DNA of 35,850 bases from Thermoflexales bacterium (GCA_017882055.1 JADGQE010000002.1:1-35850), one strand, 5' to 3'. Counted from the stretch's first letter, positions 5,880 through 35,737 are shown. Made by a program: numbers and translations. The notes: a model not told the origin generated them from the letters alone.

Positions 5880-5910
5880 GATTGCTGATTGAAATCCAAA
5901 ATCAGCAATC
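5880..5910 (+). terminator. AT-rich hairpin, possible terminator
   Basis: GATTGCTGATT-gaaatccaa-AATCAGCAATC (11-bp stem) 18 nt after the stop. It lies inside a larger imperfect palindrome built from GATT/AATC heptads. No clean U-tract. Confidence 0.45.
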
Positions 5911-5937
5911 GGAAATCTAAAATTGAATGAGGTTGCT

Positions 5938-6444
5938 ATGTCACAGATTCAGAATTCGAAAGAGTCAAAAACGGTGGTATCGATTCGGCCGCGACCCGGT
6001 CAAACTGAATTATCCTGGCGTGAATGGCTGATGCTAACGGGCATTGCCATCGTTTCCGTCGTGATTTGCGCCTATGCCGGCAAGTCGATCGTCGGCAATT
6101 TTGCCAACGCGATCCCGACGCCGTCCGTGACACCGACGATCATCCGGCCGACGGTGACCCTGATTCCCACGCCGACTTCGGCCCCGACGTTTACGCCGAC
6201 GCCGGATGTTCCAGCGACGATTGCCAGGGGCGTGTATATTGTCGTGGTAAACGGTGTGAACTTCCGACAGAGCGCGGCGACGACAGCTCAGATCATCCGC
6301 ACCCTGGGCGAAGGCGAAGTGCTGCAAGTGACCGATGGGCCGACCACAGCTGGTAAGTTAACGTGGTGGAAGTTGAAGGACCCCAACGGCGTCGAAGGTT
6401 GGGCCGTGCAGGATTACCTCAAACCGACGGCAGCGCCCAGATAA
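5938..6444 (+). CDS. membrane-anchored SH3b-domain protein (paralogue 2)
   Basis: Same architecture as 5356..5862: TM helix, PT-rich linker, SH3b-like domain (VNFRQSAA..GEVLQVTDGP..WWKL..GWAVQDYL). ATG 5938 preferred over TTG 5923 because GAGG lies 6 nt upstream. Confidence 0.75.
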   Translation: MSQIQNSKESKTVVSIRPRPGQTELSWREWLMLTGIAIVSVVICAYAGKSIVGNFANAIPTPSVTPTIIRPTVTLIPTPTSAPTFTPTPDVPATIARGVYIVVVNGVNFRQSAATTAQIIRTLGEGEVLQVTDGPTTAGKLTWWKLKDPNGVEGWAVQDYLKPTAAPR

Positions 6445-6449
6445 AAGTG

Positions 6450-6498
6450 GAATTCGGAATGCAGAATTCAAAATGAAGAATGTAGAATGTAGAATGAA
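6450..6498 (+). repeat. heptanucleotide tandem repeat (7 units, consensus GAATKNA) spanning the lipoprotein gene start
   Basis: GAATTCG GAATGCA GAATTCA AAATGAA GAATGTA GAATGTA GAATGAA. It holds four ATGs; two are ATG-TAG start-stop pairs and two (6473, 6494) are in frame with the downstream gene. Confidence 0.7.
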
Positions 6499-8675: not shown

Positions 8676-8729
8676 CTTCGGTAAACAATTACGAATCCGA
8701 AAACCATCTTTGCCAGAGTGATAACGCTT

Positions 8730-10982
<2,253 letters not shown>

Positions 10983-11116: not shown

Positions 11117-12289
11117 ATGCAAGACGAACGCAAAACCAAACAACAACTGATCGCTGAATTGAATCAACTGCGCAGTAACGTTCGCCGTCAAGCCGAGCAG
11201 ATGGAGCAACGCGCGGCTGAACTGGAAAGCGAGCGCCAGCGAACGCAGGCGATCCTTGACTCCGCCGGCGAGGGCATCTTGTTGCTGAATACCGAGCAGG
11301 AAATTCAATACCTCAACCCGGCGGTCGAACGGCTCACGGGCCATACGGCGGTCGAAATGTTGGGGCACGAGCTGCGCATCTGGATCAGCGGCCTTACCCC
11401 GCACAGCGTGATGAGTGATCTGGATGATCATATACGCCGGGGCGAAGTGTGGCAGGGTGAAGTGATTAATCGGCGCAAGGATGGCTCTTTGTACGATGTC
11501 GCGCTGACCATCAACCCGCTCAAAGATTCCGAAGGTCGCGTGGCGGCTTACGTCGCCATTCAGCATGACATTACTCATCTCAAAGAACTCGATCGCCTCA
11601 AAGATCAATTTGTGACGCGGATCGGGCATGAACTGCGGACACCGGTCGCCAATGTGAAGCTGTATCTTGGATTGTTGGAGCGTGGCAAGCCGGAGAAGCG
11701 CGAGCAATACTTGCAAACGCTCCGCAACGAAACTGAGCGCTTGCAGAAACTGGTAAACGGCTTCCTTGAGATTTCCGAATGGGATACCAGCACTGAACCG
11801 GTTCATCTGATGGCTGTGAGTCTGAACCCGCTCCTGGCTGATCTGTGGGCCGATCGGGCGGCACTGGCCGCCGAGCGCGGCCTCAGCCTGGATACGAATA
11901 TCGATCTGGCCTTGCCTCCGGCGCTTGCCAATCAAGCGATGGTGTTCCACATTGCATCGAACCTGATTGCGAACGCGTTAGACTATACCCCGCGCGGTGG
12001 ACGACTCACGCTGAGTACGGCGGTTCGATCGAAGCAGGATCGGAACTGGGTCACATTCTGCGTACAAGACAGCGGGCCTGGCATTGCGCCCGATGAGGTG
12101 CCGCGCCTCTTTGAGCGTTTCTATCGCGGCAAAGCCGCCGATAGTTTTGCGATTCCGGGCGCGGGACTTGGTCTGGCGATCAGCAAGGTGATTGTCGGAA
12201 AGCTCGGCGGTTTTATCACGGTGGAAAGCCCGCCGGCAATCGAAGGAGAGGGTGCGGCTTTCATCGTCTGGCTGAAGATGGCGCCGTAA
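11117..12289 (+). CDS. PAS-domain sensor histidine kinase
   Basis: Coiled coil, then PAS (ILLLNTEQEIQYLNPAVERLTGH), HisKA H-box (RIGHELRTPV) and HATPase_c (NLIANALDYT, DSGPGI, GAGLGLAI). The track start 10889 lies inside the previous gene. ATG 11117 follows the terminator and promoter and has AGGTGG 5 nt upstream. No response regulator is adjacent. Confidence 0.85.
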   Translation: MQDERKTKQQLIAELNQLRSNVRRQAEQMEQRAAELESERQRTQAILDSAGEGILLLNTEQEIQYLNPAVERLTGHTAVEMLGHELRIWISGLTPHSVMSDLDDHIRRGEVWQGEVINRRKDGSLYDVALTINPLKDSEGRVAAYVAIQHDITHLKELDRLKDQFVTRIGHELRTPVANVKLYLGLLERGKPEKREQYLQTLRNETERLQKLVNGFLEISEWDTSTEPVHLMAVSLNPLLADLWADRAALAAERGLSLDTNIDLALPPALANQAMVFHIASNLIANALDYTPRGGRLTLSTAVRSKQDRNWVTFCVQDSGPGIAPDEVPRLFERFYRGKAADSFAIPGAGLGLAISKVIVGKLGGFITVESPPAIEGEGAAFIVWLKMAP

Positions 12290-12432: not shown

Positions 12433-12476
12433 AGTCGCAACAAAACTGCGAAGCGGATTTGATCGAGTCAGTCCCT

Positions 12477-13721
12477 ATGCTATCAGTGCAGGAAGCTCAA
12501 CAGGCAATCTTATCCGGTATTCAGCGGCTGGAACCGGAAACCATTGATCTTGCAGAGGCACTGGGGCGGGTGCTGGCTGAAGAGGTCGTGTCTGATACCG
12601 ATCTGCCTTCGTTTGATAACTCGTCGATGGATGGCTACGCCGTTCGGGCCGAAGACGTGCGCGAGGCGTCGCCCGATCGACCGGTGCGTTTGCCGGTGTG
12701 TGCCGATATTCCCGCCGGTCATCCGATTGATCTGTTGTTGCCGGTCGGTGCAGCCGCGCGCATCACGACCGGTGCGATGCTGCCGGCCGGCGCGGATGCC
12801 GTGGTGCCGGTCGAGGACACCGACGACGGCGCGCGTGGTGCAAGCCCATTGCCGGCTGCGGTGGCGATCCATCGATCGCTGAAACGCGGCGCTTTCGTGC
12901 GGTACGTGGGCGACGATGTGAGACGCGGCGAGAAAGTATTGATCTCAGGCGCGATCGTTCGTCCGGCCGAGATCGCGTTGATGGCGGCGGTTGGACATAG
13001 TCGCGTTCAAGTGATTCGGCGTCCACGCGTGGCGTTGTTTGCCACGGGCGATGAATTGGTCGCACCTGATCAGCTGCCGGCGCCGGGTCAAATTCGCAAT
13101 GTCAACGAGCAGGCGACTGCCGCGCTCGTCGAGCGATATGGCGGCGTGCCAATCCGGTTGGGTATCGCGCGCGATCGATTGGACGCCGTGACCGAAAAAC
13201 TGGTGGAGGCGATCGAGCAGCGGGCTGATCTCATCGTCACTTCGGCCGGCGTTTCAGTCGGCGCTTACGATCTGGTCAAAGAGGCAGTGGCGGCGCACGG
13301 CTCGATCGATCTGTGGCGGGTTCGTATGCGGCCGGGCAAGCCGTTAGCTTTCGGCCAGTATCGTGGCGTGCCTTTCTTTGGATTGCCCGGCAACCCTGTT
13401 TCGGCGATGCTGACGTTTGAGCAATTTGTGCGGCCGGTACTGCGCGTGCTGGGCGGTTTCACCCGCTGGCACAAGCCGACCGTCGGCGTGATTTTGTTGG
13501 AGCCGATCGAGAGTGATGGACGCGAGACTTATGCACGTGCCCGGGTTGAGCGCGACGGCGATCATTGGACGGCGCGGCTGACCGGCGGGCAAGGCTCGAA
13601 CATGTTGAGCAGTCTGGCGCGTGCGAATGCGTTGGTGATCGTGCCGGATGGCGTCTGGCAATTGCCCGCGGGCTCAGCGGCGCAGGCGCAGATGCTGGAC
13701 TGGCCGGATGAAATCGGCTGA
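12477..13721 (+). CDS. moeA: molybdopterin molybdotransferase
   Basis: MoeA/gephyrin-E signatures: ALGRVLAEEV, FDNSSMDGYAV, GAMLPAGADAVV, TGDEL, SAGVSVG, RPGKP, GLPGNPVSA. ATG 12477 gives the usual N-terminus; the track start is TTG 12459. Confidence 0.9.
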   Translation: MLSVQEAQQAILSGIQRLEPETIDLAEALGRVLAEEVVSDTDLPSFDNSSMDGYAVRAEDVREASPDRPVRLPVCADIPAGHPIDLLLPVGAAARITTGAMLPAGADAVVPVEDTDDGARGASPLPAAVAIHRSLKRGAFVRYVGDDVRRGEKVLISGAIVRPAEIALMAAVGHSRVQVIRRPRVALFATGDELVAPDQLPAPGQIRNVNEQATAALVERYGGVPIRLGIARDRLDAVTEKLVEAIEQRADLIVTSAGVSVGAYDLVKEAVAAHGSIDLWRVRMRPGKPLAFGQYRGVPFFGLPGNPVSAMLTFEQFVRPVLRVLGGFTRWHKPTVGVILLEPIESDGRETYARARVERDGDHWTARLTGGQGSNMLSSLARANALVIVPDGVWQLPAGSAAQAQMLDWPDEIG

Positions 13722-19368: not shown

Positions 19369-19449
19369 AGCGGCACTTGCAGGTCGATAAGCGTCAGGCA
19401 GGTCTCATTCGCTGGTCGGAAATAACCCAGAAAGGAAATCACATTCTTG

Positions 19450-19929
19450 ATGAGCCAATCGCCGGAAATAACGATCGGATCGCCCGCGCCGATTTTTCGT
19501 TTGCCGGCAAACACCGGCGGCGAAATCGGATGGGCCGACTACGCCGGAAAATCGTGCGTGGTGTTGTTCTTCGTGCGCGAGTTCAACTGAATGCAGTGTC
19601 GCGTGCATGCCGGCCAGTTGGGCCGGCTCTACCCTGAATTCAAAGCGTCCAGCGCCGAAGTAGTGGTGATCTTAGGCGATACGCCGGAGCGCGCTCGCAA
19701 ATATGCGGAGTCGCTTAAATTGCCATTCCCGGTGCTGGCGGATGTCGATCGGGATGTGTATCACCAATTCGGTTTGGAGAAAACCCTGTTCGTTATTCAG
19801 CGCACGGCTTCGGTGATTATCGATCAGGGTGGCGTGATTCGTTACCTCAAGCAGGCGACGAATCCAAATACCTGGCTGGCGGAAAGCCGCGAATTGTTAC
19901 AGGCTGCTAAGGATCTTGCCAGGAAGTAG
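19450..19929 (+). CDS. peroxiredoxin-like (AhpC/TSA, PRX_like2-type) thiol oxidoreductase with in-frame TGA 19588..19590: candidate UxxC selenoprotein, or a nonsense pseudogene
   Basis: ATG 19450 opens 46 sense codons (MSQSPEITIGSPAPIFRLPANTGGEIGWADYAGKSCVVLFFVREFN). TGA follows, then the same frame continues as track ORF 19591..19929 (MQCRVHAGQL...). Together they make one about 159-aa thioredoxin-fold protein, with TGA at the first position of the x-M-Q-C redox motif. Confidence 0.6.
19609..19627 (+). promoter_or_regulatory. candidate bacterial SECIS hairpin
   Basis: GCCGGCC-AGTTG-GGCCGGC (7-bp GC stem). The stem starts 18 nt after the UGA and the apical loop 25 nt after it, with G at loop position 2. 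Confidence 0.45.
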
Positions 19930-19973
19930 CGTGAAGCACGGTACAAAATCATTGTGAAACTCGAAAGGAAATC

Positions 19974-32679: not shown

Positions 32680-33111
32680 TCAGCGTTTGCCGTTAGGCGA
32701 AGCGAGTAGTTTCTTATACGCGCCTTGCCATAGGGTAGGGGACTTCGTAAAGGTTGAGATGCGGATGTCGGAGAAGCGCGCTGCCAGGCCGGCGAGTTCG
32801 ATCGGCGCGGTGGCCCAATCGTCGCTGCGCAGGATCTGTTCGAGCCGCTTCGATGTATCGGGTAACCATAACCACTCGCGCCGAAGTTGATCGGCTTTGA
32901 CGTAGTAATCGCGCTTTTCCCACGCGCTGGCCGATTGATCGATCGATGTATCCATGCTGCGTAAGCCCACCACGATGAAGGCCAGCATGTCTTTGGCTTC
33001 GGCGTCGATCGATTTCTTTTCGCTGAGATGGCGTAGGATTTCGGCGATGGCGCGGCGAATGGCGTTGCGCTGTTGTGTGGGTGTTCCGTCGATGTGAGTG
33101 ATACGGCTCAT
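32680..33111 (-). CDS. hypothetical 143-aa protein, first gene of the dinB locus
   Basis: Clean ORF with helical, protein-like composition, directly downstream of the SOS-box promoter. No family or motif recognised. Confidence 0.6.
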   Translation of the reverse strand: MSRITHIDGTPTQQRNAIRRAIAEILRHLSEKKSIDAEAKDMLAFIVVGLRSMDTSIDQSASAWEKRDYYVKADQLRREWLWLPDTSKRLEQILRSDDWATAPIELAGLAARFSDIRISTFTKSPTLWQGAYKKLLASPNGKR

Positions 33112-33642: not shown

Positions 33643-34137
33643 ATGAAGAAGATCTTGTTGTCCGCCAGTGGCAAGGGTCGGCCCTCAAATCGCACGGAAC
33701 CTGTCTACGCTCTGGTTGATGATGAGGACTACGAGTGGTTGTCACAATGGAACTGGACGGCCATCCTGACCCATCGAAAGAGCGGCGGTTATGCTACACG
33801 CAATGAATATGGTCAATCTATTCTCATGCACCGCTTAATTATGGATGCTAAAGAGGACGAAGAAGTCGATCACAAGAACAACACTGGCCTCGATAATCAA
33901 CGGGAAAATCTACGTATCGCCACGACTAAGCAAAACCGGGCAAATAAATCAAAATACGGCAACAACACATCAGGCTTCAAGGGTGTCAGTCGCAGTGGTA
34001 ATAAATGGCAAATGCACCTCAAGGCGATTTACGATACTCCAGAAGAAGCGGCTCAAGCCTATGACGCCTGCGCCAGGATCCTATTTGGTAAATTTGCCAA
34101 TCTCAACTACCCTGAGACTGAACCTCGCCGAGGATGA
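33643..34137 (+). CDS. HNH endonuclease with C-terminal AP2-like DNA-binding domain
   Basis: HNH_3-type motif VDHKNNTGLDNQRENLRIATTKQN. AP2-like FKGVSRSGNKWQMHLKAIYDTPEEAAQAYDACARILFGKFANLNYP. The coding sequence is visibly AT-richer than the flanking genes. Confidence 0.85.
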   Translation: MKKILLSASGKGRPSNRTEPVYALVDDEDYEWLSQWNWTAILTHRKSGGYATRNEYGQSILMHRLIMDAKEDEEVDHKNNTGLDNQRENLRIATTKQNRANKSKYGNNTSGFKGVSRSGNKWQMHLKAIYDTPEEAAQAYDACARILFGKFANLNYPETEPRRG

Positions 34138-34140
34138 AAA

Positions 34141-35202
34141 GTGGCTAACACGCTTAAGTCGAAATCGTCCCAATCAATGCCACTGGCGTCAGCGCCGACG
34201 TTCACCGTCGCCGACCTTGAATATGGCGAACAATTCATCGCCACCATCGCATCGAGTCCGAAAACCGCCGACGCTTATCGCTATGGACTGGGGCAGCTAG
34301 CCGAGTTCTTTGCTGCAACTAAATACCTGCCAGGCAACAAGCCCCCTGCCCCCAAATATGCTATCGCGCGATTGAACGACACAGTGCTATTGAAGTTTTA
34401 CGAATGGCTAACCAAACAAAAGTATGCCCAGACAACTTGTGATAACTATCTGGCGGCTGTAAAGCGCTTCCTGATCTGGCTCGACGCCAACGATCGATTG
34501 CCGAGTGGCTTTCAGGTGGGCAAAGCCGTCAATCGCTTGAAGGCGGCGCGCGGGACCCGCCGGGTCGCAAAGGCCGGACGCGAACCTGATCCGGGCGTGC
34601 CCAACATGGTGACGTACTACGATGCCATCCCCCTGCCCGCGCTGGACGAAAAACGCGGCAAGATCAAGCGCCTGGAGATTCTGCGTGCGCGTGCGATCGT
34701 GCATACGTTGTATGCCTCTGCCGGCCGCGTGAGCGAAGTTGCGTCTCTTACTCGCGAGATGGTACTTGATGGCCGCAAGAGCGAGATCCGCATCACGGGT
34801 AAAGGCAACAAGGATCGCATCATGTTGCTGACGGCCGACGCTCAGCGTGCCATCGCTGCCTACTGCCGCGAGCGCGACGACGATTATCCTGGTCTGTTTG
34901 TTTCGCATGGCCGCGATGTCGGTAAAACGCTGGGACGTGGGACGCTGTGGTCGGTGGTGAAAAAAGCGGCCAAAGCGCTGGGATTGTTCAAGGGCACATC
35001 GCCACATGCCTTTCGACATTTTCGCGCACAGCAACTGTTGCACGAAGGCATGGATTTAGACGTGCTACAAGCCTACCTCGGCCACGCTGACATCAGCACG
35101 ACGCGTCGCATCTACGCGCCGTACACCGCTGTGGAGAAAGTGCGCGATCAGTTGGAGACGTTTGGACGCAGTGCGCGAGATGCGGCAAATGACGCGCGAT
35201 GA
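34141..35202 (+). CDS. tyrosine recombinase / phage-type integrase
   Basis: N-terminal SAM-like core-binding domain (FYEWLTKQKYAQTTCDNYLAAVKRFLIWL). Catalytic residues R (AGRVSEV), HxxR (HAFRHFRA) and H..Y (LGHADISTTRRIYAPY). The GTG start is 3 nt after the HNH stop. Confidence 0.9.
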   Translation: MANTLKSKSSQSMPLASAPTFTVADLEYGEQFIATIASSPKTADAYRYGLGQLAEFFAATKYLPGNKPPAPKYAIARLNDTVLLKFYEWLTKQKYAQTTCDNYLAAVKRFLIWLDANDRLPSGFQVGKAVNRLKAARGTRRVAKAGREPDPGVPNMVTYYDAIPLPALDEKRGKIKRLEILRARAIVHTLYASAGRVSEVASLTREMVLDGRKSEIRITGKGNKDRIMLLTADAQRAIAAYCRERDDDYPGLFVSHGRDVGKTLGRGTLWSVVKKAAKALGLFKGTSPHAFRHFRAQQLLHEGMDLDVLQAYLGHADISTTRRIYAPYTAVEKVRDQLETFGRSARDAANDAR

Positions 35203-35204
35203 TG

Positions 35205-35369
35205 TGCCATTCCGAACGCGACCGGCGTGTCATTCCGAACGGAGTGACGCCTGGCGGCCCACCGGCGCAGTGCGCCGGACATGGGCGGAATCTCTGGCAC
35301 CGCAGGCTACGTTTTTAGTCGGCAGTGCCAGAGATTCCTCGTCGCAAAAAGCCGCTCCTCGGAATGACA
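35205..35369. mobile_element. MITE-like element copy B (35228..35369) preceded by one solo end unit (35205..35220)
   Basis: TIRs GTGTCATTCCGA ... TCGGAATGACAC. Perfect 14-bp inner inverted repeat GGAATCTCTGGCAC / GTGCCAGAGATTCC. The left half closely matches copy A. An extra unit TGCCATTCCGAACGCG lies 23 bp upstream. Confidence 0.7.
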
Positions 35370-35380
35370 CCCAGTATGCC

Positions 35381-35671
35381 TCAGCCCAACTCCGCGCCCA
35401 AGTCCTGCCACGCAGGATTGCGCGACTCAATCAGCGCGATTTTCTTTTCGCGCCGCCAACCCTTGAGTTCTTTCTCGCGCGCGAGGGCCGCCTGCACGTC
35501 TTCCGTGCTTTCGTAGTAGACCAGCAAGGTGCAGTCATACTTCTGCGTGAAGCCTTCCACCAATTTCTGCTGATGTTGCGCGACGCGCCGCCGCAGGTCG
35601 TTCGTCATGCCGATGTAGATCACGCGCGAGTGGCTGGCCATGATGTAGACGTAGTAGTGTTTGGTGAGCAT
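35381..35671 (-). CDS. GIY-YIG nuclease family protein (small stand-alone URI domain)
   Basis: YYVYIMAS..VIYIGMTNDLRRRVAQH..., conserved Glu region AREKELKGWRREKK, 96 aa. GGAG SD 7 nt upstream. Confidence 0.9.
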   Translation of the reverse strand: MLTKHYYVYIMASHSRVIYIGMTNDLRRRVAQHQQKLVEGFTQKYDCTLLVYYESTEDVQAALAREKELKGWRREKKIALIESRNPAWQDLGAELG

Positions 35672-35693
35672 GTAATGCTCCAGTCATGTGTAA

Positions 35694-35737
35694 TGTCATT
35701 CCGAACGGTTGGTGTGTCATTCTGAACGCGGCTAGTG
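35694..35737. repeat. two iterated solo end units of the MITE-like family
   Basis: TGTCATTCCGAACGG (35694) and TGTCATTCTGAACGCG (35715) are in phase with the end of copy C at 35738 (spacings 21 and 23 bp). Confidence 0.65.

Follow-up and report, generated by a model that had tools for sequence, protein, structure and literature searches.

The window, by which we mean the whole 35,850-nt stretch of DNA analysed, carries on its + strand at 19450-19929 a peroxiredoxin-like (Prx-like) gene that lies between a divergent aldo-keto reductase gene and a gene for a GH3 glycosidase 44 nt downstream. No terminator-like site was found between the Prx-like and GH3 genes. Elsewhere the window encodes a large cell-wall-associated protein, a SpoIIE-type phosphatase, SH3-domain proteins, a molybdoenzyme of the xanthine-dehydrogenase family, a histidine kinase, MoeA, an S1-domain protein, RecA, a NUDIX protein, two ABC exporters, a UvrD-like helicase, DinB, an HNH protein and an integrase. 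The molybdoenzyme gene (8718-10982, +) codes for a large subunit of the xanthine-dehydrogenase/aldehyde-oxidase family and is found near the moeA gene (12459-13721, +); some members of this family, though not necessarily the enzyme of the window, use a labile selenium cofactor. Near the end of the window, at 33643-35202 (+), an HNH-endonuclease-like ORF is followed at once by a tyrosine recombinase of the phage integrase family, possibly marking the border of a mobile element. The ORFs at 32680-33111 (-) and 35162-35725 (+) gave no family match.

When neighbouring genes were clustered across the orthologous loci described below, no conserved neighbour of the Prx-like gene was found. A glyoxalase-family gene is located upstream in approximately 21 loci, and ABC-transporter, luciferase-domain, hydrolase and ferredoxin genes occur in fewer, none of these being present in the window. 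As there is no conserved partner gene, the genomic context gives no clue to function.

A reading frame that continues through one TGA codon

The list of ORFs for the window contains only 19591-19929 at this site, a product of 112 aa, but the same frame is open further upstream. Sequence and translation bear out the proposal of the initial annotation that ATG 19450 opens 46 sense codons (MSQSPEITIGSPAPIFRLPANTGGEIGWADYAGKSCVVLFFVREFN) before a single TGA at 19588-19590, after which the frame resumes as MQCRVHAGQL and runs to a TAG at 19927-19929. There are 112 further codons between the TGA and this terminal stop, so that the joined product has 159 aa, with the TGA as codon 47. We scanned the whole window for a second case of in-frame TGA read-through, and this gave no convincing candidate.

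Orthologues start at the Met equivalent to ATG 19450, and an alternative in-frame start, TTG, is present at 19447. A purine-rich AAGGA at 19432-19436, a possible ribosome-binding site judging from its sequence, lies 13 nt before ATG 19450 and 10 nt before TTG 19447; inspection of the DNA upstream of ATG 19591 revealed no comparable motif. We also observed that the 11-mer GAAAGGAAATC occurs twice on the + strand of the window, at 19430-19440 ahead of the Prx-like gene and at 19963-19973 ahead of the GH3 gene, so that both genes may share a motif for ribosome binding or a leader. It ends 9 nt before ATG 19450, whereas it abuts ATG 19974 of the GH3 gene, and because the spacing differs between the two genes the Prx-like gene may start at either TTG 19447 or ATG 19450.

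A predicted BCP-like scaffold for the joined product

Residues 9-132 of the joined product matched the Pfam family AhpC-TSA (PF00578; E = 3.8e-25; 88.7 bits, cut-off 26), and the product also matched Redoxin and AhpC-TSA_2. Since the AhpC-TSA match runs through the TGA, a single domain spans the stop codon, in agreement with the AhpC/TSA-type N-terminus recognised at the outset. The name 'peroxiredoxin' that was given along with it holds for the AhpC/TSA domain, but not in its canonical sense. The universal peroxiredoxin active-site motif is PxxxTxxC, which comprises a Pro, a Thr and the peroxidatic Cys (C_P). When the product was aligned with the BCP structure 5enu, the Pro was replaced by Arg43 and the Thr by residue 47, the putative selenocysteine (Sec47), and only the C_P-equivalent Cys50 was retained. 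Arg43 sits inside an FFVRE motif that is found throughout the family. Because both the Pro and the Thr are missing, the protein is not a canonical peroxiredoxin.

The solved structures nearest by sequence are of BCP/PrxQ proteins (5enu, 2e-12; 3drn, 3e-11), followed by ResA at about 1e-6. Sec47 aligns with the Thr in the BCP motif N-T-P-G-C (TxxC) and, in the CxxC of ResA, with the first Cys, while Cys50, encoded by TGT at 19597-19599 and invariant in the family, aligns with the peroxidatic Cys of peroxiredoxins and with the second Cys of ResA. It was expected from the initial annotation that the TGA would fall on the first redox Cys, and this is where the joined product aligns both with ResA and with its natural Cys-containing homologues. 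The motif is therefore read as U47-M-Q-C50, in which Cys50 would be the resolving partner of Sec47. A further invariant residue, Arg118 (CGC, 19801-19803), is part of a QRTAS motif and lies one column away from the peroxiredoxin active-site Arg in the alignment with 3drn. Arg118 is probably the equivalent of that conserved Arg, and it may keep a peroxiredoxin-like activating role.

For structural comparison we used an AlphaFold model (pLDDT 87.4, pTM 0.81) of a natural Cys homologue, P0003, which is 66% identical to the window protein by BLASTP; the model is thus of the homologue and not of the window protein itself. In this model the Sec-equivalent residue, Cys45, directly precedes a helix at 46-64. 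The residue just before that helix is the canonical position of the nucleophile in the thioredoxin fold. Foldseek searches with the P0003 model returned Bcp1 (3drn) as the top match (TM 0.77/0.87, rmsd 2.1 Å), with ResA, DsbE and AhpE close behind. On the basis of this model, the window protein is predicted to combine a BCP-like scaffold with a UxxC centre of the thioredoxin type. Inspection of its short N-terminus revealed no obvious signal or anchor.

The TGA codon is retained across orthologous loci

To follow the TGA codon among relatives we scanned for orthologues, taking one genome per species, and recovered 80 loci at which tblastn matches run through the TGA. These are nearly all from Chloroflexota metagenome-assembled genomes (MAGs; Anaerolineae, Anaerolineales, Thermoflexales and Ktedonobacterales), at 53-68% amino-acid identity. 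The motif could be located in 77 loci, the window included, and it was found that the codon at the Sec position is TGA in 75 of these, TGC in one (L058) and TGT in one (L077). Cys is present at this column in the natural homologues P0003, P0008, P0009, P0016, P0020 and P0064, and in L058, L077 and L081. A nonsense pseudogene would have predicted close relatives with TGC or TGT and no hairpin after the codon, and the opposite was found, with TGA and the hairpin described below being kept. The same conservation excludes a sequencing error, which had been considered as another source of the TGA.

The frame ahead of the codon behaves as coding sequence. The 38 codons upstream of the TGA are free of stops in all 70 distinct Sec-form sequences, and entropies at the three codon positions over the last 12 codons before it are 0.65, 0.49 and 1.34, the downstream pattern being alike with the third position most variable. 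This codon pattern indicates purifying selection on a translated N-terminus, which neither a pseudogene nor a sequencing error can explain. We also considered a global reassignment of TGA (code 4 or 25), and rejected it because, of the 24 ordinary genes in the window, 14 end in TGA, the commonest stop codon there.

A candidate SECIS element downstream of the TGA

The sequence GCCGGCC-AGTTG-GGCCGGC at 19609-19627, within the coding region, forms a hairpin with a 7-bp stem (19609-19615 paired with 19621-19627) and a 5-nt loop, AGUUG (19616-19620). Counted from the TGA, the stem begins after 18 nt and the loop after 25 nt, and G occupies loop position 2; folding confirmed each of these features of the hairpin as first described. 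The published model of the bacterial SECIS (bSECIS) element asks for an apical loop of 3-9 nt on a stem of 4-16 bp, a G within the first two loop positions that is usually followed by G or U, a distance of 16-37 nt from UGA to loop, and a minimum free energy of -7.5 kcal/mol or lower (PMC13188914, Fig. 2A). With its AGUUG loop, 7 bp, 25 nt and -16.0 kcal/mol, the window hairpin agrees with the model on all four points, so that the bacterial SECIS geometry originally suggested for it is upheld. As a single sequence, however, the fold of this GC-rich stretch is unexceptional (z = -0.81 for 63 nt, with 32 of 200 shuffles folding at least as well), and the case for a SECIS element therefore rests on comparison across genomes. 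Rfam contained no match to a SECIS or other family at or near the gene, the sole weak hit being an L19 leader at E = 8.5, which is noise.

A strict form of the bSECIS test, with a contiguous stem, was passed by 60 of 71 Sec forms and by one of seven homologues with Cys or Tyr at the Sec position. Ten of the 11 Sec forms that failed have a single stem mismatch, and the other, L042, has a 4-bp stem at -7.2 kcal/mol and misses the energy threshold alone. The seven Cys/Tyr forms serve as natural controls: the hairpin is lost in four of them, where the 19-nt segment folds at only -1.6 to -3.6 kcal/mol, although L081, the Cys form nearest to the Sec clade, retains most of it and another Cys form, L084, also makes a stable hairpin.

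Conservation of the hairpin in relatives had been put forward as a check, and an ungapped alignment of 70 sequences showed that its register is kept and that compensatory changes are present. The inner five base pairs form in 87-100% of the sequences and the two outer pairs in about 60%. Shifting the 3' arm by one to three columns in either direction reduced pairing from 86% to 34-63%. Double-sided changes were counted in 31 cells against 5.6 expected, a value reached by none of 500 shuffles; these covariation counts are not phylogenetically independent, although the G26 state is seen in at least four different sequence contexts. Two pairs account for clear switches. Pair 26:36 is CG in 53 sequences, GC in six and GU in two (Fisher p = 3e-7), such that where codon 55 is GCC (Ala) the codon for Gly58 is GGG in 53 of 62 sequences, and in 8 of 8 sequences with GGC or AGC at codon 55, the window among them, it is GGC or GGU. 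Pair 23:39 is CG in 20 sequences and UA in 20, U23 occurring with A39 and C23 with G39 (p = 5e-5). It can be seen that at both pairs an amino-acid change on one arm is matched by a synonymous change on the other.

Synonymous codon choice in and around the loop is nearly frozen in the 70 sequences. Leu is encoded by UUR in 70/70 at the hairpin compared with 28% elsewhere in the same genes, and Gln by CAG in 70/70 compared with 61%. The corresponding values are 53/70 and 24% for GGG as the Gly codon, 59/60 and 39% for GCC as the Ala codon, and 44/46 and 33% for GUC as the Val codon. Six of the seven non-Sec homologues instead use CUN for the hairpin Leu. The hairpin does overlap the codons of conserved residues (A/G-Q-L-G-R), and part of its conservation therefore reflects the protein.

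tRNA-Sec and a second TGA-containing gene near orthologous loci

No selA, selB, selD or tRNA-Sec gene, and indeed no tRNA gene of any kind, was found in the 35.8-kb window, and tblastn searches with Escherichia coli SelA, SelB and SelD gave no match either in the window or in approximately 1.3 Mb of sequence flanking the orthologues. It follows that selA, selB and selD are not linked to the Prx-like locus. In one Chloroflexia MAG (L009), a 93-nt tRNA with anticodon UCA is encoded at 12016-12108 (+), 1.5 kb downstream of the orthologue, and it matched the Rfam tRNA-Sec model RF01852 end to end with 72.1 bits against a cut-off of 47. This tRNA gene is flanked by genes for a DUF169 protein and a peptidase M50, with no selA or selB nearby. 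Selenoproteins and tRNA-Sec have been reported previously from Chloroflexi (PMC1794560, PMC5389517).

A dozen loci contain, 3-4 kb upstream of the orthologue, a DsbA-like gene (PF01323) whose Pfam match begins just past the CxxC. The upstream frame reads LTIYSDYV-TGA-PWC-YVGQG in L045, L025, L046, L019, L010, L008 and L007, and in L020 and L004 the gene is in a Cys form (SDYV-Cys-PWC). In L045, for example, the gene covers about 5892-6467 (+) and has the in-frame TGA at position 1 of the redox motif. A hairpin follows the DsbA-like TGA in several loci; the gene is absent from the window. From these sequences the DsbA-like loci appear to be a second Sec/Cys pair and a candidate UxxC selenoprotein, and the DsbA-like family is already listed among the UxxC selenoproteins (PMC1088965).

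Representation of the family in protein databases

A protein search with the joined product returned 417 relatives. Among the best 120 of these, approximately 102 are entries of 109-135 aa that cover about 65-70% of the query and have their start at the Met that follows the TGA, or close to it. Only 18 of the best 120 are full length, and at the TGA column these have Cys in six cases, Tyr in one and Trp in 11 (P0004-P0007, P0010-P0015 and P0017). For P0005, the one of the 11 Trp entries whose DNA was checked (locus L082), the codon at 639-641 is TGA and the standard code does not yield the deposited protein. The Trp entries are probably gene calls made on short metagenome contigs under a code in which TGA is Trp, giving a spurious active-site W. 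No curated NCBIfam model reaches its cut-off with the joined product, which leads to systematic shortening of the gene in public records.

Two orthologues carry taxonomic labels from other phyla. The Prx-like genes of L019 ('Acidobacteria bacterium') and L064 ('Cyclobacteriaceae bacterium') are identical or nearly so to those of Chloroflexota MAGs, L016/L017 and L035/L048 respectively, the Prx-like region being identical among L016, L017 and L019. The labels of L019 and L064 probably reflect mis-binned contigs or a mislabelled MAG.

Discussion

The comparisons presented here point, with a probability that we put at about 0.9, to 19450-19929 being one genuine selenoprotein gene in which the UGA at 19588 encodes Sec. 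Its product would be a 159-residue thioredoxin-fold redox protein with a BCP/PrxQ-like scaffold and the active site Sec47-Met-Gln-Cys50. The hairpin at 19609-19627, with its AGUUG loop, would act as the bacterial SECIS element, binding SelB together with Sec-tRNA(Sec) and delivering it to the ribosome while the UGA occupies the A site, where RF2 would compete, so that the codon would be recoded as Sec during translation. The protein would then work as a Prx-like thiol:disulfide oxidoreductase, in which a selenolate placed at the N-terminal end of helix alpha-1 would be the attacking nucleophile, forming a selenenylsulfide with Cys50 that a thiol reductant would re-reduce. We infer the dependence on SelB, the insertion of selenium and the nature of the substrate, which could be a disulfide or a peroxide.

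A different outcome of recoding, which we consider improbable, is that the UGA is read as Cys or Trp, through a tRNA-Sec-like tRNA(Cys) or by near-cognate read-through, to give a selenium-free CxxC protein; on this reading the role of the conserved hairpin would still be to recruit SelB or to delay termination. There is a precedent in the deltaproteobacterial tRNA(Cys) that mimics tRNA-Sec, possible examples of opal suppressors (PMC5389517), but the tRNA beside the L009 orthologue fits the Rfam tRNA-Sec model from end to end (72 bits), and both the use of Sec and tRNA-Sec are documented in Chloroflexi (PMC1794560, PMC5389517). Moreover, if Cys were made, it would be pointless for 75 of 77 lineages to retain a codon as costly as UGA, because one step is enough to turn TGA into TGY, and this change is seen in L058, L077 and L081.

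Termination at the UGA followed by re-initiation at the overlapping AUG would produce polypeptides of 46 and 112 aa, either assembling or separate. The TGA is followed directly by ATG in the window, as it is in 53 of 70 orthologues, and the 112-aa product is what databases list. We rejected this explanation, which we regard as very unlikely, as 15 of the 70 orthologues have no canonical start codon at that point (CTG, CTA, ATA, ATC, TTA, AGG or GCA being found) and ATG 19591 has no ribosome-binding site. The break would furthermore divide one thioredoxin fold between strand beta-1 and helix alpha-1 with loss of the CxxC nucleophile, and the natural Cys forms are single chains. That the gene is a nonsense pseudogene, or that the TGA is a sequencing or assembly error for TGC or TGT, could be argued from the gene callers, which treat TGA as a stop and list the 112-aa tail alone, and from the absence of Sec machinery from the 35.8-kb window, but this explanation is effectively refuted already by the TGA being shared by 75 of 77 assemblies made independently from different species, by purifying selection on both flanks and by the co-conserved hairpin after the codon.

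Returning to the selenoprotein reading, a family of 'Prx-like thiol:disulfide oxidoreductase' selenoproteins with the PF00578 domain and a UxxC or UxxU motif is established in the literature (PMC2398784, PMC9312934, PMC13188914), in line with the class to which the initial annotation referred. It is also called 'Prx-like protein' in the Sargasso Sea study and 'Prx-like 1' in the GOS study, its type member is WP_010940744.1 of Geobacter sulfurreducens, and it is set apart by a UxxC motif like that of thioredoxins, where Sec-peroxiredoxins have TxxU (PMC1088965, PMC9312934). The window protein shares with this family the domain, the position of Sec47, which opens a thioredoxin-like UxxC and not a TxxU, and a consensus-type bacterial SECIS immediately downstream. 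By the rule used in the field, shared domain and Sec motif, we assign the predicted selenoprotein to the Prx-like UxxC family. The family is known from deltaproteobacteria and marine plankton, whereas the clade of the window comes from Chloroflexota/Anaerolineae.

Comparison with other relatives places the protein more exactly. Its best NCBIfam match is NF040769, SelL-related redox protein, which is likewise a thioredoxin-fold, Prx-like protein with its redox motif at the same place, but with 62.6 bits (residues 21-122), about half of the cut-off of 120, the window protein is a relative and not a member. BCP/PrxQ proteins (Sulfolobus Bcp1, 3drn; Burkholderia, 5enu) are closest in both sequence and fold, with Cys50 on the peroxidatic Cys; they differ in having PxxxTxxC, where the window protein has Arg43 for the Pro, Sec47 for the Thr and a thioredoxin-like U-x-x-C pair. 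Proteins of the ResA/TlpA/DsbE type are structural neighbours too, and the CxxC of ResA falls residue for residue on U47-x-x-C50, but at E about 1e-6 they are less closely related, and they are extracytoplasmic proteins anchored in the membrane, whereas no obvious signal or anchor was seen in the window protein. PrxU of Eubacterium acidaminophilum (NF040737) is also a selenoprotein of the AhpC/TSA superfamily; its Sec is at the peroxidatic position (TxxU), whereas that of the window protein would be three residues upstream of the C_P position, and the NF040737 score of 24.2 bits is far below the cut-off of 270.

A more far-reaching proposal, to which we give rather less than even odds and which is put forward tentatively, is that these proteins form a distinct, Chloroflexota-wide subfamily of BCP-fold selenoproteins in which Sec takes the place of the catalytic Thr while the Cys at the peroxidatic position and the active-site Arg are kept. 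If this is true, the hybrid active site could support chemistry unlike that of either peroxiredoxins (TxxC/TxxU) or thioredoxin-like CxxC proteins. Such a subfamily would have Sec nearly fixed (in about 97% of orthologues) and a near-invariant SECIS loop, C-AGUUG-G, and, being missed by current curated models, it would be cut short in essentially all public annotations.

Relatives of the protein are at present stored as fragments of about 110 aa or with a spurious Trp, and correcting these entries would restore the catalytic residue. The 70-sequence hairpin alignment, with its natural compensatory changes and Cys-form controls, would also make a clean training and test set for bacterial SECIS predictors. 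A Prx-like UxxC gene leaves the understanding of Sec decoding unchanged, and the clade is a Chloroflexota-wide addition to a class of selenoprotein that is already known. It would mark Anaerolineae-type Chloroflexota as regular users of Sec in a thiol-redox protein, which should help to predict whether MAGs recovered from soils, sediments and bioreactors depend on selenium.
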